A program made the translations under genes and the position numbers. A stretch of 64,000 bases of DNA, taken from positions 988 to 64,987 of the forward strand of contig JAZKIM010000006.1 of the NCBI GenBank assembly GCA_040384865.1, read 5' to 3'. The notes under the pieces are model-generated. The model searched no databases and was not told the DNA's origin. It worked only from the letters and a program-made list of their open reading frames with translations. This stretch comes from Patescibacteria group bacterium. GTDB taxonomy: Bacteria > Patescibacteriota > Minisyncoccia > Phycocordibacterales > CAIZLB01. Of this stretch, positions 4,270-58,304 are shown piece after piece (the first letter of the stretch is position 1; the number at the start of each line of letters is the position of its first letter).

Positions 4270-7200
4270 CTAGGCAGATTCTGCCAAGGCCGAAAAGATC
4301 GTGTTAAGCCTTTGGAACTGGTAGTACAAAATGGTTGTATCCTGAACAATTGGCTCAACCAACTTCTTTATTTTTATTTTCTTTTGCATAAAGTTGTAGA
4401 CTTTCATAGCAGTAGCTAAATTACGTGTAATTCTTACTGTTTCCTTGTAAGCTTTTTCAACACCTCCCTTTTGGATCGTCTTCTGTATTAGATCAAGTTC
4501 ACGAATGTATTTATCTCGTATATGTTTAATTTGAACTTGAGACACTATTACCGCCCTCGCTAAAGTAATTGCGGTGGTTGAATCCAATTCAGAGGATTGC
4601 GAATCTGGAAAAAGCTCTTCATCTTTAAAACCATCGGCGTTGTAATCGATTGTCATAAGACTTGAGGAGGCGGGGATAAATTCAGCTGTCATTCCTTCAA
4701 TCGTTGGCACATTGGAATATTCCATTTTTGATATGACATTATCGCCTTGAAATTCTGTAGCTGTGAATCTAAAAATTCCCGTATCGAGTCCTGTTAGCAC
4801 AATCTTTGCTGGCAACGTTGAAGTGATAATTGTCTTGGCTTCACCGAAATTATCATACTGGCTGTTAGGAATCTCCTGTAATACAAAACCAATTTGATCT
4901 TCAACTGCCTCTTTTACGAGCCCTGTTCGTTTTCCGTCTTGGTCATAGGCCATTATAGCGACAGGTGAATGAACTGAGAATTCATAGCGTTTCCGGGGAT
5001 CATCTGTCATTGACTGCTTACTAACAAAGGGCGGTAATTTTGACAATTCACCACGCAATATTGAAACTATCATTTGTTGAATTACAGGGATACTCATCAT
5101 ATTAGAGTGCTGATAGTTTTGTTTTGTCTCCAGGTTAAGAGCAGAAATATCAACAGCATACACGTCACCGCTTCTAATACTCAGCTCTCCTGCCAACACC
5201 ACTCCGTCGCCATCAGCAGAATAAACCCTTGTACGATCAATTTTAGTTTTGTCTCCTTTCTTTGTATATCGATATGATATTCCTGTTGTCGTATTTCTTC
5301 CCACCCCCACAATATTAGTTACACCCACCAAACCAGATAACGAAGATGATTGAAAAAGTCCATCCATACTCTGATGAAAGTTTTCAGACCTTACCAGCAA
5401 ACCGCTGTTAAGGACGCTCGGCTGATCAATACTTTTAGTATCCACACGATCTCCTTTTGAAGCTACGAGAAAGTTCTCCAACTGAATACGATCGGTAATT
5501 GTATTGCCGTACTTTGAGGCGGGACTCAAGGCAGGATCTGAGTCGGCTGTAAAAGTAATGACAGGAGGGCTTGATGAACCAAAATACTTTTGGGAAGGCA
5601 AAAGAGAATATGCGGCTGACATATTTTTCGACAAATCACGTGCGGTAGATTTGCTAAGAATGAGCCCTCCTAAAATACTCTGGCCGTCACCGTGAAGCAT
5701 GTCTCCAACGGCCTGTGGTGTTCCATATTCAGGTGCTCCAACCATGATCAAACGATCAACCAAACTCCCCTTCCCTTTATCAAAAAGATTTTTAATAAAA
5801 GTCTTGGCTACCAACCCTCCATTACTATGGGTCAGTATGGAAACCTTCCCTGTCTTTGAATTATTTACCAGACTGTTAAACAATATCTCTAGGGAAGTGG
5901 TAGCATTCTTTTCAAGCATTATCTGCCTGTTTGCAACTTCATCAGGGTTACCCCTCCAATCATACGGAGCGGCTGTCCATGCGGCAATCATACTCTGAGA
6001 CACAAGGCTCGCAAGAAAATTGCTTATCCCATCGTACACACCCACATCGAACAATCCCCCAGACAAATTTGTCTTTCTTATAACGTCACGAGTATAAACA
6101 TTCTTTTCTATACTGTTACCATTCGAGTCGAGAAATAGTTTTTTAACATCAGCATTTGTGTTAGGTTCCCACAACTGGTTCTCAGTCCAATTCCTTACAT
6201 AAAGTCTACTCGCTTCAATGCCAGGGATAAACAGGATGCTCGAACAACAGATAATGGCATTAGGTTTTTCTATAAGCCACGGTATAAACACAACATCATC
6301 AGTGACAATTTGCCCTGTTCCTGCTGGATTTGTTTTCTTGTTGTATGGACCATTGGCACTCCCCCACCAATTTTTCGAAGCGGTTACAGGGCCTCCATAA
6401 GCGATCATTCCATAAGATTTATTCTCTTCAATACTACTATTCATTATAGTAGTTGATGAGTTATATGATTCAACACCAATATCATTTCTTTCAAACAAAC
6501 TATTTCTTATATCCACCCCTCCGTTTGAATGCGCTAATAAGCCACTGGCCTTACTGTCAGTGATTGAAACTCCATCAAGGATTACGGATGCACCATTAAA
6601 AACTTCAACTCCTACGGAGGGAGATTGAAGAAACGTCGAGGCAGAAATAGACATACTAGTTTTACCCTGAGAATTCCATCCATCAAAAATACTAATAGCG
6701 GCTTTATATCCAGACTTCTGAAAAGATGTCTGTCTTATGTCTCCATGAGAGTTGTTGTATATATCTAATACGTGAGGAGTGTTAACTCCTGAGAATAAAT
6801 TGTCAGCGAGAGAAATAGTACTACCGCTGTATACGATCATATATGATCTACTCCCTTGTATGTTTTCAAAATGCGAGTGAACTATCTCCACCTTCCCTCC
6901 GATAGACTCAATTATAGGCCCCTCACCTGTTGCGTTAGTGAATTGCATGTATAAATTTCCACCCACAATATTCATGGGCGCTAAAAGTTTCCTAGGATTT
7001 ACGAGCTCAATTGAAATTTGCCTCGAAGATGTGCCTTGAAATTTTAATGTTCCGCTTACTTTAATTTGTCCTCCGTCAAATCGAATCGTTGTTCCCTCTT
7101 CAACAACTATCTCTCTTCCGAGTGGAATATAAATATCTGCCGCTGATACTGTATACGGACCGTTCTCAGCTGTGATATATGAATGCTCGTTAATAAACAA

Positions 7201-7287: not shown

Positions 7288-7484
7288 GTGACCATTATCC
7301 GCGCAGCCTATTAAACAAAGTTCAAAAAAATATCAAAGGAAACCTATCTCAAATGAAAGTAACTAGTGGTAAACAGGACGACAAACCCCGCAATCAAAAT
7401 TCCAAGGAAACCACATATTAATTTGAAGGATGTTTTATCGAGCATGTTAATGTCCTAATTTTATACTAAATAACCAAAACAAAA

Positions 7485-25571: not shown

Positions 25572-25590
25572 ATAGGGAAATTATAACATA

Positions 25591-47214: not shown

Positions 47215-47793
47215 ATGAAAAACCAAGCGTATGCTGAACGCACCAACGAAAAGATGAAGGAGGTCCTCATGAACCCCGCAGCAGCTGGCCCTGAAATACA
47301 TTATTACATGATTCGCGGTGGTTCGAAAAAAAAGAATATCACCGTTTGGGAATCTGGTACGGTAGGCGGTGAATACATCAAAGCATATGGCCACTATCAT
47401 ATCGATGACTTCATCGAAACATACTGGGTGCTTGAAGGCCAAGGACTTCTCCTCTTACAGATGCGTAAGAAAGATAGCATGGGAAAATTTATCGATGACG
47501 AAATAGATTCATTCGAAGCTATTTCAGTACGAGCTGGTAGCAAGATCGTCATCCCCCCATTTGCCGGCCACTTGATGATTAACACCGGATCAACATGGCT
47601 CGCCACATCAGATGACAGTCCGGTTAATTTCGATGCTGGGGACTCTGCAAGTCAACCAGCTCATGCCGACTACGAACCACTTCGAAAACTGAATGGCTTT
47701 GCGTATTATGTTATCGAAAAGAACGGTAGACCTGAGTTCGTGAAGAACCCGAATTATAAAACGATTCCCGATATCACCCATCGAACAGCCTAA
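47215..47793 (+). CDS. Cupin-type glucose-6-phosphate isomerase (archaeal cPGI-like)
   Basis: 192 aa; AYGHYHIDDFIETYWVLEGQG cupin metal motif typical of cupin PGI. Confidence 0.65.
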   Translation: MKNQAYAERTNEKMKEVLMNPAAAGPEIHYYMIRGGSKKKNITVWESGTVGGEYIKAYGHYHIDDFIETYWVLEGQGLLLLQMRKKDSMGKFIDDEIDSFEAISVRAGSKIVIPPFAGHLMINTGSTWLATSDDSPVNFDAGDSASQPAHADYEPLRKLNGFAYYVIEKNGRPEFVKNPNYKTIPDITHRTA

Positions 47794-51814: not shown

Positions 51815-52408
51815 ATGATTGAACAATTGTCTTCTGAAGTTTCGCCTTTCATTCTTACACTATTACTTAAATATAAATATTTAGTCCTTTTTCCCATTCT
51901 CGTTGTGGAAGGCCCCATCGTCACTATACTGTCGGGAGCCTTGGCCACACCCGAAGCGCACGTGTTTTCCATCGTTCCCCTGTTCTTCTTTGTTGTCTTC
52001 GCCGATCTCTTCGGCGATACGTTCTATTATTTGATAGGAAGGTACGCTGGTGAAAAGGTATTAAATAGGATCAGCGAGAAAAAGCATGTTGATTATCACC
52101 AAAAGATTACGGACTATTTTGAAAAATATGGTGGACGAACGTTGATTATTGGAAAAATAAGTCACGGTCTCGGATGGCCAGTGATGGTATTTGCAGGAAG
52201 TGTACATATGAACTACGCAAGATTCATGACATTTAATCTTTTTACCAGTCTTATTAAAAGCATTGTCCTGATTTTAATAGGATACTTATACTCCGAGAAT
52301 TATAGACAGATAGTTTCTTATTTCGGCTCAGTAAGCGCAACGATTACAATAACAGCTCTTGTTGTGCTACTGATATATCTATTCGTCTATTCGAGAAAGG
52401 TTCGATGA
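51815..52408 (+). CDS. DedA/TVP38-family membrane protein
   Basis: 197 aa; DedA-like hydrophobic pattern. Confidence 0.75.
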   Translation: MIEQLSSEVSPFILTLLLKYKYLVLFPILVVEGPIVTILSGALATPEAHVFSIVPLFFFVVFADLFGDTFYYLIGRYAGEKVLNRISEKKHVDYHQKITDYFEKYGGRTLIIGKISHGLGWPVMVFAGSVHMNYARFMTFNLFTSLIKSIVLILIGYLYSENYRQIVSYFGSVSATITITALVVLLIYLFVYSRKVR

Positions 52409-52546
52409 ACCCTATCATGAAGCTTTAATTAAGATTGCATAAGCTGTGCATAACCAGGTGGAAAACTTGTTGACATCATGTGGATGAGGTATAGCATTAG
52501 ACACAGGGAAGCACGGATTGTCAACAATCAACTAGAGGAAACATAT

Positions 52547-52693
52547 ATGGTGTCGCACAGTTACAACCGAAAAATCGACCTGCTCGAAGCAGTCACGCAG
52601 TTACTGACGCAAGGGTTACCACCACCGCGTCTGAAGGAAGCAATTCGCAACCTCAAAAAACAGCGGGCTCTCAGCCGACCGGCTATCGGCTAA
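52547..52693 (+). CDS. Possible small (48 aa) protein with good RBS in a GC-rich patch
   Basis: agaggaaacatatATG; the ORF is GC-rich compared with its surroundings. Confidence 0.2.
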   Translation: MVSHSYNRKIDLLEAVTQLLTQGLPPPRLKEAIRNLKKQRALSRPAIG

Positions 52694-52956: not shown

Positions 52957-53352
52957 TTAATCCCTAAGAATCTCAGGTATCCGACTTCGGGGAATCTTTC
53001 TTACAAACACAGTCTTTTCTTTCTGAATATAAACCTTCACTAAACGGTGTAATCCATCTAAAATAAGCCACCTTCCTTTATTCTCCATAATATCTATTGG
53101 ATGAATTAAATCAGCAGCTTGGACTTTGGCGTAATGTGTCTTTTCAATCTCAGGATGTTTAATAACATCCCAGGCTTTAAGGTTGTAGTCGTCTGTCCCT
53201 TCCTTTTCCCAAAATGGAATATCAAAATGCCAAAGCAATTCATTTATATCAATCTCTTCTGTTGGCTCATCTAAAGCCCAAACCTTCTTTGAACTCCAAT
53301 CAAAATCAAATCCAACATCTTTAATAATTTGTGGTACTTCAGAATCTTTCAT
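52957..53352 (-). CDS. Hypothetical protein (weak ParB/Srx-like DGxHR motif)
   Basis: 131 aa; ILDGLHRL. Confidence 0.3.
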   Translation of the reverse strand: MKDSEVPQIIKDVGFDFDWSSKKVWALDEPTEEIDINELLWHFDIPFWEKEGTDDYNLKAWDVIKHPEIEKTHYAKVQAADLIHPIDIMENKGRWLILDGLHRLVKVYIQKEKTVFVRKIPRSRIPEILRD

Positions 53353-53430
53353 TCCTAGAGTATATCAAAACAAAAAGTTCGATTCCTAATAGCCTATTTC
53401 AACCATATACCCGACGGGAGATTATAATTA

Positions 53431-53500
53431 GGGGGCGCGACTACCGGAACCTTATACTGGAGGTATTTTACGACCGAAAATACTTAAAATCCCTTATTGA
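53431..53500 (+). repeat. Repeat A: tRNA-His-3'-end-like element (gggggcgcgactaccggaacc) plus shared tail ttatactggaggtatttta...aatacttaa
   Basis: About 45/50 identity with repeat C; head resembles the + strand image of the tRNA-His acceptor/T-arm at 58230-58255. Confidence 0.6.
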
Positions 53501-53510
53501 GAATCTATGG

Positions 53511-54014
53511 TTAATTAACCTTTAATCTATTAATCAACTTATTAACATCCCTTTGATTCTTAAGAATGATCAATTCTTTCCCTTCGATACCCTCTTCAAC
53601 TTTCTTAAACATTTTTTTACGCGGAAACCTTATGACAAATCTCATATGACTCCATTCCAATCTATCTTTATTGTTTCCTCCCATATCAGGTCTTACTTTG
53701 TTGAAATTTAAAATATATCTTTTTAGAGACCTCCACAGAACAACAATCTTAGGCAAGTCAAAAACTATAACAGTGTCCGCCACTTTTACCCTGTCTTCAA
53801 TGTTCCTAATATAATTTCCATCGATGATCCATTTTTCTTCTTTTAAAATACTGCCCACGCTTTGATTGAACTCGTCCATCGGCGTTTCCGTCCAATTCTC
53901 TTTCCAATAGTATTTATCCAAATAATGAACAGGGAGATTCAAAATACTACCCAACTTTGTTGCTAGGGTTGATTTACCAGATCCAGGACAACCTATAATA
54001 ATTACTCTATTCAA
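53511..54014 (-). CDS. P-loop NTPase/kinase (AAA, topology-modulation/adenylate-kinase-like)
   Basis: 167 aa; IIGCPGSGKSTLA Walker A. Confidence 0.6.
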   Translation of the reverse strand: MNRVIIIGCPGSGKSTLATKLGSILNLPVHYLDKYYWKENWTETPMDEFNQSVGSILKEEKWIIDGNYIRNIEDRVKVADTVIVFDLPKIVVLWRSLKRYILNFNKVRPDMGGNNKDRLEWSHMRFVIRFPRKKMFKKVEEGIEGKELIILKNQRDVNKLINRLKVN

Positions 54015-54420
54015 GAAATATTTTATTATTTAAAAAGGCAGAAATTACTCTTTTGTGACCGATAAAAATATCTTCAGGCAACTGATCTAGAGGAAACCAT
54101 TCCCATCCATAACATTTATCAGGTTCGATATTTTCTGGTTCACCAATAACACTACTCGCCAAGAAATTTATATGAATATAATGCTTATCTTCACCAAGCA
54201 TTGGCTCATTCACAATACTCAAGAAAGAAAGGTTCGCGTTTAAACCAGTTTCTTCTTTAAGTTCTCTTTTTGCAGCATCCACCAAATACTCCATATATTC
54301 CAAATGTCCTCCTGGTAAACCGTAAAAGCCATCGCTTGAAGGTTTTCGTCTTTTCCCTAAAAGTAACTTATTGTCTTTAATTACAAAGATATTTACAGCA
54401 ACTTTGGTATATTTATCCAT
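54007..54420 (-). CDS. NUDIX hydrolase
   Basis: 137 aa; Nudix box GGHLEYMEYLVDAAKRELKEETG; overlaps the kinase gene by 8 nt (operon). Confidence 0.8.
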   Translation of the reverse strand: MDKYTKVAVNIFVIKDNKLLLGKRRKPSSDGFYGLPGGHLEYMEYLVDAAKRELKEETGLNANLSFLSIVNEPMLGEDKHYIHINFLASSVIGEPENIEPDKCYGWEWFPLDQLPEDIFIGHKRVISAFLNNKIFLE

Positions 54421-54432
54421 TCGATAAGTATA

Positions 54433-54500
54433 CCAAAGTCAGAATAAGCTCCATTTGTATACCCTATCTGAATCTTATTATAACCTTACTTGAATCTGAC
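54433..54500 (+). repeat. Repeat B: aaagtcagaataa...ccctatctgaatcttattataacc (paralog of repeat D)
   Basis: Shares about 65 bp with 56101-56165, including a copy of the last codons of the TrmB-like gene. Confidence 0.6.
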
Positions 54501-54541
54501 TACCGCACACATCAAATTGATCTAGGGGATATTCTTTCAAC

Positions 54542-54727
54542 TTAATCAGCTGTTGATTTTGAAACAAGAAAACGTACAGAAAAAATTGAGACTATTAATA
54601 GCGGTAAAAAAATGAAAAAAGCACCTAGTGGGTTATGTTCAAAGCCCATTATTCTGTAAACCACCATTGAAATTAAAACTACAATTACCTGTAGAACTAA
54701 TATCTTATTTTTTCTTGCGTGATGCAT
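54542..54727 (-). CDS. Small 2-TM membrane protein
   Basis: 61 aa hydrophobic. Confidence 0.3.
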   Translation of the reverse strand: MHHARKNKILVLQVIVVLISMVVYRIMGFEHNPLGAFFIFLPLLIVSIFSVRFLVSKSTAD

Positions 54728-54750
54728 TTACAGTAAAGTATACCCTAAAT

Positions 54751-54830
54751 TATCTATAGACGTGGGCGCCTGCCGGAACCTTATACTGGAGGTATTTTAG
54801 GATAGAGAATACTTAAGAAATGTAATTGAG
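54751..54830 (+). repeat. Repeat C: cgtgggcgcctgccggaacc plus ttatactggaggtatttta...aatacttaa
   Basis: Paralog of repeat A; head resembles the tRNA-His 3' end. Confidence 0.6.
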
Positions 54831-54855
54831 GTGTTAAATCTGATACAAAGAGAAT

Positions 54856-54889
54856 ACCCGCAAGCACAACAGGTGTGCTTGCGGGTATC
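54856..54889 (-). terminator. 13-bp perfect-stem hairpin (acccgcaagcaca...tgtgcttgcgggt) after the cupin gene
   Basis: Read directly. Confidence 0.6.
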
Positions 54890-54891
54890 GG

Positions 54892-55263
54892 TCAGGCAGC
54901 AAGTGCCAGAACCTTCTGCGTTTCATGGCGATTGTCGAGAGACCCGACGCAGCCAAGGTCTTGCTTAGGGACCCAGCTATGTGCAGTCCCTGGCAGAACC
55001 AGCGTGAGCGCGTGTTCAGGGAGACTGATCCGCTCTCCGCATACTTCGACGTCCAGACCTTCAGATTTGTAGAAGGACGGGAAATCGTGCTCGTGAGGTT
55101 CAGTTCTCTTCCCCCGAGGAACAGACTCCATCCCGTGCCGACCAACAGCAAGGGATTCGAACAACGCAGACTCGGTGGTCAGGTCAGCGACCAAGAATGG
55201 ACCTTGGACTCGGAAACTGATTCCACCGAGTTTTTGCATAATCTCCGTTGTTTCGGAATTCAT
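54892..55263 (-). CDS. Cupin-domain protein in a GC-rich patch
   Basis: 123 aa; HEHDF...E...LPGTAHS cupin metal motifs; GC visibly about 55%. Confidence 0.5.
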   Translation of the reverse strand: MNSETTEIMQKLGGISFRVQGPFLVADLTTESALFESLAVGRHGMESVPRGKRTEPHEHDFPSFYKSEGLDVEVCGERISLPEHALTLVLPGTAHSWVPKQDLGCVGSLDNRHETQKVLALAA

Positions 55264-55369
55264 TCAATATCACCTCCTTCTAGGACTATTTGGTCCGATC
55301 TTAGTATAAAAACATGGTGTGTTATGTAAACCTGTTGACACAGCTTGACAACCATACTACCCTACAGCT

Positions 55370-56113
55370 ATGGAATTACTAACCCCGAAGGAAAAACGCA
55401 TCTTGGGTGCTTTATATAAATTAGGTGAGTCCCCTATTAGTAAGATATCCAAAGAAATCTTGCTTAATAGAACTGCTCTCTATCACACGATCGAAGAGCT
55501 TCTTAAAAAAGGATTGGTGACAAAGATTACAAAAGAAGGAGGTGCTTTCTTTCAAGCAATTTCTCAAGACGAGTACAGAAGCTGGGCAAAGAGAAAAATC
55601 AGCTCCCTCACAGAAGAAACATCAAATCTGGGCGACTGGCTAAATAATCAGCAACAGCAACTCCCTACTCTGTATTCTGATATTCGATACTTTGAAGGGG
55701 TTGAGAGCGTTAAGAATCTTTATGAAGACAGCTGGCGAGAAAACAAAGATAAGAAAATTTATTGCATTACCGATTATGACAAAGCATATGACACGTTAAA
55801 TAACTTTCTTGAACAAGAATACTTCCCTGATAGAGTGAAGAGAGGGATTTCTATTAAAAGCTTACTTCCTCAAAGCACTTCTGGAAAAAGAGATATTTCT
55901 AGATCAAAAGAACTTCTTCGGGATATGCGTTTCTTAAATACATTCAAAGATTTAGGAATTGAGCTAAATATCTATGGGTCGAAAGTCTCAATTGTTGCCT
56001 TTGATAAAAAGAAACCTTCCGGTGTCATAATCAAAAATGAAATAATTGCAAAAGCATTCAAAAATATCTTTGAATCACTATGGGCAACAACAAAACCTAT
56101 AAAGTCAGAATAA
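55370..56113 (+). CDS. TrmB-family (sugar-responsive) transcriptional regulator
   Basis: 247 aa; N-terminal wHTH LTPKEKRILGALYKLGESPISKISKEILLNRTALYHTIEELLKKGLV; divergent from the cupin gene, with two TTGACA hexamers in the shared 107-bp intergenic region. Confidence 0.6.
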   Translation: MELLTPKEKRILGALYKLGESPISKISKEILLNRTALYHTIEELLKKGLVTKITKEGGAFFQAISQDEYRSWAKRKISSLTEETSNLGDWLNNQQQQLPTLYSDIRYFEGVESVKNLYEDSWRENKDKKIYCITDYDKAYDTLNNFLEQEYFPDRVKRGISIKSLLPQSTSGKRDISRSKELLRDMRFLNTFKDLGIELNIYGSKVSIVAFDKKKPSGVIIKNEIIAKAFKNIFESLWATTKPIKSE

Positions 56114-56170
56114 ACACCATTACTATGCCCTATCGGAATCTTATTATAACTTTGCTGAATAGAGATATTT
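56101..56170 (+). repeat. Repeat D: aaagtcagaataa...ccctatcggaatcttattataac (overlaps the TrmB stop codon)
   Basis: Paralog of repeat B. Confidence 0.6.
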
Positions 56171-56203
56171 GTACCAATTCAATAAAAAATCAATATCTTA
56201 GCC

Positions 56204-56752
56204 TTACAAATTCTTAGATCTATAGACAAAGATGCTGACAATAAGAGCAAGAACACCTAAAGCAATAAAAATCTCTCTGAAGCCAAAGTTTTGTATCAGG
56301 ACTGTTCCTATAAGAGCGGCCATTCCAGTAATAATATATGCAACTGATTGCAGGTCTGCCCATTGAATCGAAGAGTCTTCCTTATTAACATGTTTCGTAT
56401 ACAGGGCATCAAATGCTGGCATACTCAACGCACTCCCAATACTCATTAACACCAAACCCACCAATAAAGAAATATTAGAAAGTGAAAGACCAATTACAAC
56501 AAAAGATACTCCCTTCACAGCATATCCCGATGCAATCAACTTTTTCTTTTCTGAATAACGAGTTTCAAATTTTCCTAAAAAGAAAAGAAAGATTCCTGTG
56601 AGAATTGAAAATAAAGCCAATGAAGAACCGGCAAAGAGGAAACTACCATTCAGAGACTGAATATAAGTTACATAAAACGGAGTAAAGATTGCCCCAATAA
56701 ATGTCATCGTCGAGCTAACAACAATCATTATTTTAAGTTCTTTTTGAAACAT
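56204..56752 (-). CDS. 6-TM membrane protein (half-MFS-like)
   Basis: 182 aa hydrophobic. Confidence 0.4.
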   Translation of the reverse strand: MFQKELKIMIVVSSTMTFIGAIFTPFYVTYIQSLNGSFLFAGSSLALFSILTGIFLFFLGKFETRYSEKKKLIASGYAVKGVSFVVIGLSLSNISLLVGLVLMSIGSALSMPAFDALYTKHVNKEDSSIQWADLQSVAYIITGMAALIGTVLIQNFGFREIFIALGVLALIVSIFVYRSKNL

Positions 56753-56788
56753 CGCTAAATTATAGCGTATGTACCTGTAGATATCTAA

Positions 56789-56830
56789 GCGTGGGCAGCT
56801 ATCCGAATCTTATTATAACTTTAGTCGAAC
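56789..56830 (+). repeat. Repeat E: gcgtgggcagctatccgaatcttattataac (closest copy of the tRNA-His 3' end plus the ttattataac tail)
   Basis: cgtgggc..ctatc.gaatc aligns with 58228-58250. Confidence 0.6.
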
Positions 56831-56904
56831 ACATGAGTACGATCGACAGCCTGTTTAGGTCACTTAAAAAGATTAAGACCTTCAAGATTTAAAATATGAT
56901 GGAA

Positions 56905-58209
56905 TTAAATTCTTTCCATTGTCACTAGATAAATTAACTCTCCATTCGAAGTGAATGATTGGATCAGGTCATTAGTTTTTACTGGCCACCCTGGCGTGAA
57001 GTTAAAATCCCGTACCGCGACACCGCAAAGACCTGATCTTGGATAAGCATCCGTCTCTTGTTTCATTGTTATCTTTCCATTGTCTACTGAGTAAACTGAA
57101 GTAAGCGGAGGCATTCCAGATATTGAAAGTGATGCCTTATCCATAGCCAGGTTCGAAACCGTCCATCTATACTTACCCTGATCATTGAAAAAGTAATACT
57201 GGTATTTTTCATGCAGAGCATCATCAGGGTCAGGAACCAACCCTGGCTTTATATATGAATAGGTCCGACTCCAGTCTCCGATAACGTCTTCAGCCTGGCA
57301 TAATCTATAATCTTCTTTACTCAAAACTATTTTTTGAGTATCCGTTCTAGGTTCAGTCGTCTCTTGAGAACTTGAATTCCCTTCGTCTATTATCATTCTA
57401 CAAATATCTGCAACAGTATTCCCGTTTTTATCCCGATTTAAAACACCCTCCGTCTCAATTGTTGGGTCAATTGTTAAACCTTTTATACACTCTTCTCTTG
57501 CCATAGCATCATTAAAATGATCGGAGCGGTACAATACACCCTTAGTTAAATAAGCCTGCGCGGTGACACCTGGCAACACTTTAGTGCTAGTAATTTCATT
57601 AAGCACCTCTATTGCCTTTATCTTATTACCACTGGAGTAATATTGTTGTGCTACAAAAAACTTCCCCTCCATGTTTTTATATTCTTGATAGTCTGTCCAA
57701 AGAGGAAGAAGGAATACTACAAATGCGACCAGAACTCCCCAACCAAAATGCTTAAAACCATTCGACTCTTTTACCTCTTTTTTCACTAGCTCAGAACTAC
57801 CGTTGTTTATTTCAGCAAAGGCACGATTAATCTTTTCAATATCCCATCCACCCTGCATATTTAATAATTGGATTATTTCATCTTCCCTCTTTCCCTTGCT
57901 CTGCTGATCTTTAATAAAATTCATCAGTTCCGGGTATATTGAAACTTCTGTTCTCTTTTTTATTTTAGATTTCCACCCCAAGTATATCCATATCGAAAAT
58001 GAAAAAATTGATGCGAGAAAAAAAGCACGCATTAAACCAACACTAACTACAAGAGCCTCCGATGTTCCATATAGGTCGTAATACAGCCAACCACCAACAC
58101 GAGCAACGATACCGAGACCAAGAATAAACCAGGCGGCCTTAATCATTATGTTTTTATTATAACCTAAAGTTCCATACTCCATCCAAGTTCGCCTATTTAA
58201 TTCACACAT
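56905..58209 (-). CDS. Hypothetical multi-TM membrane protein with large extracytoplasmic domain
   Basis: 434 aa. Confidence 0.4.
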   Translation of the reverse strand: MCELNRRTWMEYGTLGYNKNIMIKAAWFILGLGIVARVGGWLYYDLYGTSEALVVSVGLMRAFFLASIFSFSIWIYLGWKSKIKKRTEVSIYPELMNFIKDQQSKGKREDEIIQLLNMQGGWDIEKINRAFAEINNGSSELVKKEVKESNGFKHFGWGVLVAFVVFLLPLWTDYQEYKNMEGKFFVAQQYYSSGNKIKAIEVLNEITSTKVLPGVTAQAYLTKGVLYRSDHFNDAMAREECIKGLTIDPTIETEGVLNRDKNGNTVADICRMIIDEGNSSSQETTEPRTDTQKIVLSKEDYRLCQAEDVIGDWSRTYSYIKPGLVPDPDDALHEKYQYYFFNDQGKYRWTVSNLAMDKASLSISGMPPLTSVYSVDNGKITMKQETDAYPRSGLCGVAVRDFNFTPGWPVKTNDLIQSFTSNGELIYLVTMERI

Positions 58210-58229
58210 ACTCCACCAACATCTAATCG

Positions 58230-58304
58230 TGGGCGACTATCGGGAATCGAACCCGAATCGAGAGTTCCACAAACTCCAGTGTTAACCTTTACACCATAGT
58301 CGCC
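58230..58304 (-). tRNA. tRNA-His (anticodon GTG) with encoded G-1
   Basis: Cloverleaf folded by hand: G-1 + GCGACTA acceptor, anticodon loop TTGTGGA, T-arm TCGGG-TTCGATT-CCCGA, discriminator C. Confidence 0.8.

Follow-up and report, generated by a model that had tools for sequence, protein, structure and literature searches.

The 64-kb window studied here (64,000 nucleotides of a Patescibacterium genome, the whole stretch of DNA that was analysed) contains a histidine tRNA gene, tRNA-His(GTG), followed by an array of small gene cassettes separated by short direct repeats, which we call junctions A to E. We describe this array, compare it with related loci (numbered L001 onward) and weigh the ways in which it could have arisen; an earlier note, made from the letters alone, had read the repeats as remnants of serial integration at the tRNA 3′ end. 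The tRNA gene, called by ARAGORN and by Rfam (RF00005, 60.6 bits), occupies 58231-58303 on the minus strand, and position 58304 encodes its G-1; the gene is intact and its CCA is unencoded. From the tRNA outward, the array consists of a gene for a 434-aa ORFan, junction E, a half-MFS transporter gene, junction D, trmB with a 123-aa gene and a terminator, junction C, a 61-aa protein gene, junction B, a Nudix gene with a kinase gene, junction A and an inverted tRNA fragment. Beyond that fragment (53377-53392) come a T-run, a promoter, a 131-aa open reading frame (ORF) and the conserved flank. The first cassette begins 22 nt downstream of tRNA-His, and the GC content of the variable region is 0.34-0.41, compared with 0.42 for the window.

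The cassettes measure 0.3-1.7 kb and hold one or two genes each. Cassette 1 (56905..58209, minus) encodes the 434-aa ORFan, which has three transmembrane (TM)-like segments and matches only itself among 5.8 billion proteins; its gene has a Shine-Dalgarno-like GGTGGAG and is without a promoter of its own. Cassette 2 (56204..56752, minus) encodes a 182-aa protein with six TM segments that corresponds to half of the Pfam domain MFS_1. Cassette 3 (54853..56113, both strands) carries two divergent genes, trmB (55370-56113, plus; TrmB by Pfam) and the GC-rich 123-aa gene (54892-55263, minus; GC 0.546), together with a 16-bp terminator hairpin (54853-54889). Cassette 4 (54542..54727, minus) encodes the 61-aa protein, with two TM segments, and cassette 5 (53511..54420, minus) a Nudix hydrolase (54007-54420, minus; Pfam NUDIX) and a P-loop kinase (53511-54014, minus; Pfam AAA_18), whose genes overlap by 8 nt. 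The gene content proposed in the earlier note was thus borne out, by Pfam for the kinase, Nudix, TrmB and half-MFS proteins and by TM segments for the 61-aa and 434-aa proteins; the exception is its label of cupin for the 123-aa protein, which finds no support in Pfam. Eight cargo genes have a GC content of 0.30-0.385 and a ninth one of 0.546; that of the window is 0.423. PADLOC revealed no convincing defence system in the cargo, and a Nudix homologue in L021 has no junctions around its gene. The last variable gene, the 131-aa ORF (52957..53352, minus), has no homologue in the sister loci. It contains ILDGLHRLV, reminiscent of the DGxHR motif of ParB/sulfiredoxin-like nucleases, and has no Pfam match at E<=0.01.

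The repeats themselves are real, direct and all on the 3′ side of tRNA-His, as had been claimed. GAATCTTATTATAAC occurs exactly three times in the 64 kb (B 54470, D 56136 and E 56805; 0.3 expected) and the 27-mer CCGGAACCTTATACTGGAGGTATTTTA exactly twice (A 53444 and C 54773; 0 expected). Junctions A and C have 65 nt in common at 82% identity; B and D have 56 nt in common at 86% identity, AAAGTCAGAATAA included. The five junctions fall into two classes, E, D and B (class I) and C and A (class II), with one core, TAAGRTTCNGRYAG, common to both. No further junction repeat was found in the window outside 53.4-56.9 kb, and in 1.32 Mb of fetched DNA the core pattern gave 13 matches at array junctions (11 distinct junctions, since L095 and L096, two overlapping Logan contigs from sister runs, cover the same DNA) and two stray ones, at chance level. 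Such confinement to one locus, with copies in neither the rest of the window nor the remainder of the sister loci, favours att remnants over dispersed repetitive extragenic palindromic (REP) or miniature inverted-repeat transposable element (MITE)-like sequences, which is how the earlier note had set the comparison. It leaves a REP/MITE-like element, or an assembly artefact, scarcely credible: the small size of the repeats is all that speaks for it, the junctions lack terminal inverted repeats and do not fold significantly, and five independent assemblies agree. As single-stranded DNA, ten junctions folded no better than shuffled sequence (z -0.87 to +1.76), and Rfam searches, with permissive thresholds across 52.5-59 kb and with gathering thresholds across five sister loci, returned only tRNAs.

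Read on the minus strand, in tRNA orientation, every junction is a composite of a conserved arm that is not derived from the tRNA, the common core and then, in E, C and A, an acceptor-like tail. The class-I arm is TTCAAGCAAAGTTATAATAAG and the class-II arm CTCAAT..TTAAGTATT..AAAATACCTCCAGTATAAG. The core aligns with TTCGATTCCCGATAG of tRNA-His, that is, with the T-loop and the border of T-stem and acceptor stem, and the tail with trailer has its tRNA-His counterpart in TCGCCCACGATTAGAT. Junction E (56783..56833, minus) shows the full order, with class-I arm TTCGACTAAAGTTATAATAAG, core TAAGATTCGGATAG and tail and trailer CTGCCCACGCTTAGAT. Junction C (54751..54830, minus) combines a class-II arm, CTCAAT..TTAAGTATT..AAAATACCTCCAGTATAAGGTTCCGGCAG, with the tail and trailer GCGCCCACGTCTATAGAT, and junction A (53432..53501, minus) a class-II arm with the tail TAGTCGCGCCCC, which includes the best acceptor-strand match in the window (TAGTCGC, 7/7). 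An apparent extension of the class-II arms into the anticodon stem of the tRNA was too weak and was not used. Junctions D and B have GGYATASWAATGGWGYTTATTCTGACTTT in place of the acceptor-like tail: in D (56101..56160, minus) the class-I arm and core TAAGATTCCGATAG run into the linker GGCATAGTAATGGTGTTTATTCTGACTTT, and in B (54435..54494, minus) the class-I arm and core TAAGATTCAGATAG run into a linker that ends with TTTGGTATACT 6 nt before the Nudix ATG. The stop codon of trmB lies within the linker of D, and AAAGTCAGAATAA had been taken for a copy of the trmB end. It is instead part of a conserved linker, ATGGWGYTTATTCTGACTTT, which also occurs in L085 and in L095/L096 without an adjoining trmB end; the trmB frame simply runs into it.

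How far the junctions resemble the tRNA-His 3′ end and trailer was scored against 3359 background windows. Junction E scored 17, a value reached by none of them, and junction C 11 (background fraction 0.0018); A and D, each with a score of 9 (0.023), are marginal, and B, with 7 (0.23), is not significant alone, though clearly homologous to D and E. The likeness is therefore solid for one member of each class, and the remaining junctions have it through homology. The description of the repeats as tRNA fragments has to be amended for the non-tRNA arms and for B and D, where the tail is missing. Elsewhere in the window, CGATTCCCGATATCACCCATCG (47754-47782, plus), inverted and close to the tRNA-His 3′ end, is a single match that gave the background maximum of 16; the tRNA-like 20-mer at 47754 falls inside the coding region of a 192-aa ORF, whose L085 counterpart is annotated GPI, and was set aside as probably due to chance.

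A further tRNA-like segment lies at the distal end of the array (53359..53396, minus; score 10, background fraction 0.008), an inverted copy of the T-arm and acceptor of tRNA-His that reads GTTCGATTCCTAATAG on the plus strand at 53377-53392. It also holds a T-run and, 7 nt upstream of the start codon of the 131-aa ORF, the box TTTTGATATACT, and it resembles the tRNA trailer of L086. Since the genes behind the trailer-like promoter are non-orthologous between genomes, the argument that it represents an ancestral trailer comes down to about 20 nt that overlap the host promoter consensus. Many Paceibacteria have inverted copies of this kind 40-270 nt downstream of tRNA-His, frequently with a direct copy behind them. 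In the first 400 nt downstream of the gene, an inverted copy was present in 8 of 52 loci and a direct one in 6 of 52, compared with 0/52 upstream, and the copies co-vary with the T-arm of their own genome (L074 6700-6770; L013 10640-10975; L031 10716-11000; L033 10660-10820; L048 1726-1910; L058 10641-10800; L092 9459-9540; L001 10803-10820; and the window copy). In L013, L031, L033, L048 and L058 they enclose a GC-rich stretch of 80-130 nt with local hairpins that belongs to no Rfam family; the pairs may represent either a scar related to att or a small structured element. These copies are what would be expected if the repeats were local duplications of the tRNA 3′ end and trailer, made by template switching or slippage at a highly transcribed tRNA and unrelated to gene mobility. 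Such an origin leaves unexplained the non-tRNA arms common to several genomes, the foreign, non-homologous cargo between the copies and the reuse of the trmB module, and we regard it as highly improbable.

Every junction has TATAAT or TATAAG beside its core and lies 35-80 nt upstream of genes on the same strand, which might instead suggest that the repeats are regulatory modules, promoters or 5′ leaders that were duplicated along with their genes; the earlier note had likewise proposed that the elements with TATAAT (B, D and E) may now serve as promoters. Both proposals fare poorly. The class-I hexamer varies (TATAAT, TATACT, TATATT, TATAAC) and is less conserved than the neighbouring AAGATTC, which is nearly invariant, and by eye the TATAAT of class I and the TATAAG of class II are 3 nt out of register. 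A promoter consensus scan did not call the junction TATAAT, and no -35 element lies at the right spacing; junction D, moreover, faces a gene end. In the half-MFS, Nudix and 61-aa genes a -10-like box lies nearer to the ATG, 6-11 nt upstream of it. Among the four forward genes that follow a junction, three have a promoter-like box near the start codon. In the half-MFS gene TAGATA-17-TATAAT stops 6 nt short of the ATG, in the Nudix gene TTTGGTATACT lies 6 nt before it, and in the 131-aa ORF TTTTGATATACT lies 7 nt before it. In the fourth, the 61-aa gene, only the weaker GGTATACT was seen by eye, 11 nt upstream of the ATG. There is thus no need to suppose that the repeats were exapted as promoters, and duplicated regulatory modules are an improbable explanation of the array. 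Leaderless-type promoters appear to be normal here, since six of the seven TGNTATAMT sites in the window lie 6-10 nt before an ATG on the coding strand (minus-strand sites at 25588, 45121, 46755, 53367, 54435 and 59761), which suggests that leaderless or near-leaderless transcription is widespread in this organism. One TGNTATAMT site stands directly after tRNA-Leu.

Comparison with related genomes confirmed that the tRNA-His neighbourhood is hypervariable, as the reading of an accessory stretch had implied. The pduO gene adjacent to tRNA-His places the window among Patescibacteria of the Paceibacteria/Parcubacteria type. The window and the Paceibacteria loci L085, L001 and L086 have the same two flanks and no cargo gene in common. 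On the tRNA side all four have DUF3298, pduO and tRNA-His, the succession of pduO and tRNA-His being widespread; the distal flank comprises a small GC-rich ORF, a VTT-domain gene, an 800-aa phosphorylase, a glycosyltransferase, GPI and MscL. In the window this flank (51815..52693) includes the VTT-domain gene (51815-52408, plus) and the small, basic ORF (52478-52693, plus). Identity of pduO to that of the window is 90% in L085, 85% in L001 and 84% in L086, and the DNA between the flanks measures 5.5 kb in the window, 3.7 kb in L001, 3.6 kb in L085 and 0.7 kb in L086. At the fixed distal border of the variable region, next to the small ORF, a non-coding stretch of about 90 nt with TTGACA-type boxes is 74-85% identical in the four genomes (window 52443-52531; L086 2593-2681; L001 13014-13093; L085 5547-5660).

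At this same place, L001 and L085 carry the same junction repeats. In L001 there are three class-I junctions, all with a perfect acceptor tail (..AAGATTCGGATAGTCGCCCC..) and each preceding a different gene, and the 12-mer GATAGTCGCCCC occurs there three times (<=1 mismatch) within 2.5 kb downstream of tRNA-His, for which we estimate a chance expectation of about 0.08. In L085, a truncated class-I core is fused to a linker of the D/B type and followed by a Cupin_2 gene, a class-II arm and the tail GCGCCCA; the Cupin_2 protein and the cupin-like 123-aa protein of the window proved unrelated on comparison. No junction was found in L086, which is near-empty and holds a single gene. Junction classes are thus reused across genomes, class I in the window, L001, L085 and L095 and class II in the window and L085, with a single core throughout: of the four genomes with the same flanks, three carry them, and the smallest locus has none. 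The same architecture is seen in five independent assemblies from at least four populations.

Cargo also recurs in other company. The module of trmB and the cupin-like gene has a copy in another metagenome, on L095/L096, at 84% nucleotide identity over 943 nt. Behind this copy in L095 come a class-I junction, the D/B linker in a longer version and an unrelated gene; more distant pairs of trmB and a cupin-like gene are found at unrelated loci of other genomes of the candidate phyla radiation (CPR). Because the module recurs beside another junction and other genes, cargo modules evidently move independently of their neighbours. On L097, a more distant CPR contig, trmB, a cupin-like gene and a 219-aa gene follow closely on tRNA-Leu(GAG) and are flanked by 54-nt inverted repeats (5377-5430 and 7328-7381; 89% complementary) and a 17-nt direct repeat, which would be a different way of mobilising the same cargo.

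When the junctions were read by eye, their arms proved equally alike between genomes and within one genome, and their tails matched the resident tRNA: the window has CCCACG, and L001, where CCA is encoded in the tRNA, has CCCC. Arms without genome bias and tails that follow the resident tRNA are what hybrid attR-type sites would be expected to look like. The cassette ends also pair consistently, again by eye, in all nine cassettes with both ends known: a tail-type left end goes with a class-I arm at the other end (6/6) and a linker-type left end with a class-II arm (3/3).

One alternative needs no site-specific recombinase. In homologous recombination, the junctions, about 40-95 nt long, would act as portable patches of homology (linker and promoter), between which RecA, after DNA uptake, swaps, adds or deletes genes between the flanks; the tRNA-like core would then be a historical relic. 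RecA and RecO are encoded in the window, no integrase was found in the searches made, and the same cargo stands beside different junction classes in the window and in L095. L085 adds a further point. It is the closest relative by pduO (90%), yet has a quite different tRNA-His (1528-1599; acceptor TAGGCACCC, T-arm GAGAGTTCGATCCTCTC), which argues for replacement of a whole segment via flanking homology. The patches, 30-65 nt at about 85-90% identity, are nevertheless near or below the length of an efficient RecA substrate, there is by eye no concerted evolution, the arms being as alike between genomes as within them, and tails that copy the end and trailer of the resident tRNA go unexplained, as do copies that are all direct and 3′ of the tRNA. 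On balance we consider homologous recombination an unlikely source of the array. The tRNA gene of L085 itself seems to have been replaced at that locus, and a junction inside the array nonetheless retains a tail of the window type, GCGCCCA. Two further Logan contigs from close relatives, L090 (ends at 1481; pduO 89%) and L091 (ends at 1961; pduO 85%), stop within the 5′ half of tRNA-His, consistent with branching of the assembly graph here or with a tRNA common to co-occurring species.

We return to serial insertion, which we consider the probable explanation: an additive genomic island anchored at tRNA-His, with hybrid att-type junctions left behind. The primary attachment point is the tRNA-His gene at 58231..58304. 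Cassettes of one or two genes would be inserted one after another at or beside its 3′ end, each insertion leaving a hybrid junction made up of an element-derived arm (class I or II), a core that mimics the T-loop and the T-stem/acceptor border, and a tail that, unless deleted, repeats the 3′ strand of the acceptor together with the discriminator and about 12 nt of trailer. The insertions would be the work of a site-specific recombinase that acted in trans or has since disappeared, with a crossover presumably just after the YAG of the core. Newer cassettes would displace older ones away from the tRNA, and the most distal junction, A, would still adjoin a trailer-like segment (inverted tRNA fragment, T-run and promoter). 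The left end seen at D and B may have arisen by deletion, with the longer form in L095 as an intermediate, or may mark cassettes whose only insertion sites are junctions already in place. Of the five testable features that define a tRNA-anchored additive island, four are present, namely an intact tRNA upstream, direct repeats of its 3′ end, variable content between the flanks and atypical or foreign cargo; only the integrase is lacking. With regard to the earlier proposal of att remnants, confinement to the locus and hypervariability stand, and the units have to be redrawn as cassettes of 0.3-1.7 kb rather than decayed large islands. The locus is, then, a gene-acquisition hotspot of a familiar kind, unusually miniature, in which no integrase was found.

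Several findings weigh against this reading, among them the outcome of the searches for a recombinase and a carrier. Pfam detected no tyrosine or serine recombinase in 30 ORFs of the window (about 25 larger ones were checked by phmmer only) and no integrase domain in any ORF of the variable region, as the earlier note had stated. With XerD and Hin as queries, phmmer searches of all ORFs of the window and the first 80 loci gave a single match, a serine recombinase in L067, upstream of its tRNA-His. Precomputed Pfam tables list no recombinase in L085 or L086, no recombinase family recurs within 7 kb downstream of tRNA-His (135 singleton ORFs from about 50 loci), and none of four arrays contains an integrase remnant. 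A phage- or plasmid-like carrier of these arms was found neither in IMG/VR nor in JGI metagenome contigs: exact-pattern scans of IMG/VR with both arm classes, the linker and the tRNA 3′ end returned nothing or chance matches without extended similarity, and the class-I arm is absent from the JGI contigs. The cassettes are also far below the typical size of integrative elements. A cassette with the left end of B or D could not enter the tRNA without destroying it, because the acceptor-like tail is absent; the same trmB cargo has a class-II right end in the window and a class-I one in L095; and inverted tRNA fragments are not predicted by simple attR formation. A search with the 5′ 40-mer of tRNA-His retrieved one unrelated GC-rich metagenome contig, L084, where an apparent tRNA gene (1290-1555) is split by about 230 nt inserted between GCTCAGTTGGTAGAGCAC and GGTTCAATTCCCGG; this may be an intron-containing tRNA.

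A more specific proposal, which we put forward tentatively and think doubtful, is that the junctions are the recombination sites of an undescribed, integron-like cassette system of Patescibacteria. The tRNA-His 3′ end would be the primary site, and a linear core of about 14-35 nt (TAAGRTTCNGRYAG with the acceptor-like tail) would take the place of the attC hairpin. Cassettes with matched left and right ends in two classes and with leaderless-type promoters of their own would be shuffled in trans by a recombinase encoded elsewhere in the genome of about 1 Mb, or on a phage or plasmid. Distinctive in this respect are the two arm classes with one core, the matched cassette ends and the units of one or two genes. 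Whichever mechanism applies, the genomes of Patescibacteria/CPR are very small and have usually been portrayed as containing few mobile elements, and a conserved locus at which single genes, many of them ORFans, are gained and lost shows how a flexible gene pool is kept up in streamlined cells. Partial tRNA-His repeats with a defined core are an easily found marker with which this pool may be catalogued across metagenomes. If a trans-acting recombinase could indeed be linked to the core, the locus would represent a simple system of cassette capture, different from integrons.

We found no description in the literature of such a tRNA-anchored island in Patescibacteria, and several known systems invite comparison. 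The dif modules, or integrative mobile elements exploiting Xer (IMEX), use XerC/XerD sites of 28 bp, in which a 6-bp spacer separates two 11-bp arms and which usually alternate in orientation around the modules; here, only the short dyad TTAT-N-ATAA is seen by eye, the junctions are all direct, and phmmer with XerD found no Xer gene in the window. Tandem staphylococcal cassette chromosome (SCC) and pseudo-SCC elements accumulate at the 3′ end of rlmH (orfX), each bounded by a direct repeat of this gene end, and some elements of this type are without a recombinase of their own and are served in trans, Ccr serine recombinases being known. They differ in their protein-coding target and in being many kilobases long. 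REP/MITE elements are unlike the present repeats, which occur at one locus only and do not fold. With integrons, and especially with clusters of attC sites lacking integron-integrases (CALINs), the array shares tandem, mostly single-gene cassettes in one orientation, short site-like repeats, a wealth of ORFans and, as in CALINs, the absence of an adjacent integrase. Since they fold no better than shuffled sequence (z -0.87 to +1.76), its junctions are not attC-like hairpins or structured RNAs, in contrast to the imperfect palindromes of integrons; of the four forward genes after a junction, three are preceded by a promoter-like box, the array is anchored at a tRNA 3′ end and not at attI, and no IntI was found.

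Closer parallels come from streamlined planktonic bacteria. In Prochlorococcus, tycheposons integrate serially at one tRNA, pushing older elements deeper and leaving only partial tRNA copies between them, and the islands contain scattered degenerate remnants and extra partial tRNAs, most islands being without an intact element (bioRxiv 10.1101/2020.12.28.424599). The serial pattern with partial tRNA copies between units is the same here. Tycheposons, however, are defined by a tyrosine (or small serine) recombinase together with replication genes and measure 4-200 kb (bioRxiv 10.1101/2020.12.28.424599), whereas no recombinase and no replication or packaging module was found in the window array or the sister arrays. 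'Ca. Methylopumilus' (Methylophilaceae) has a flexible genomic island, fGI-2, at tRNA-Lys that is additive, has recurring tRNA 3′-end repeats, ranges from 330 bp to 42 kb and encodes about 80% proteins of unknown function (PMC10872708). The two islands agree in residing in a streamlined genome, in adjoining a tRNA, in their highly variable size (here 0.7-5.5 kb) and in a cargo mostly of unknown function. The island described here may be set apart by the conserved non-tRNA arms of its repeats, in two classes, and differs in its units of one or two genes, its Patescibacterium host and its anchorage at tRNA-His.

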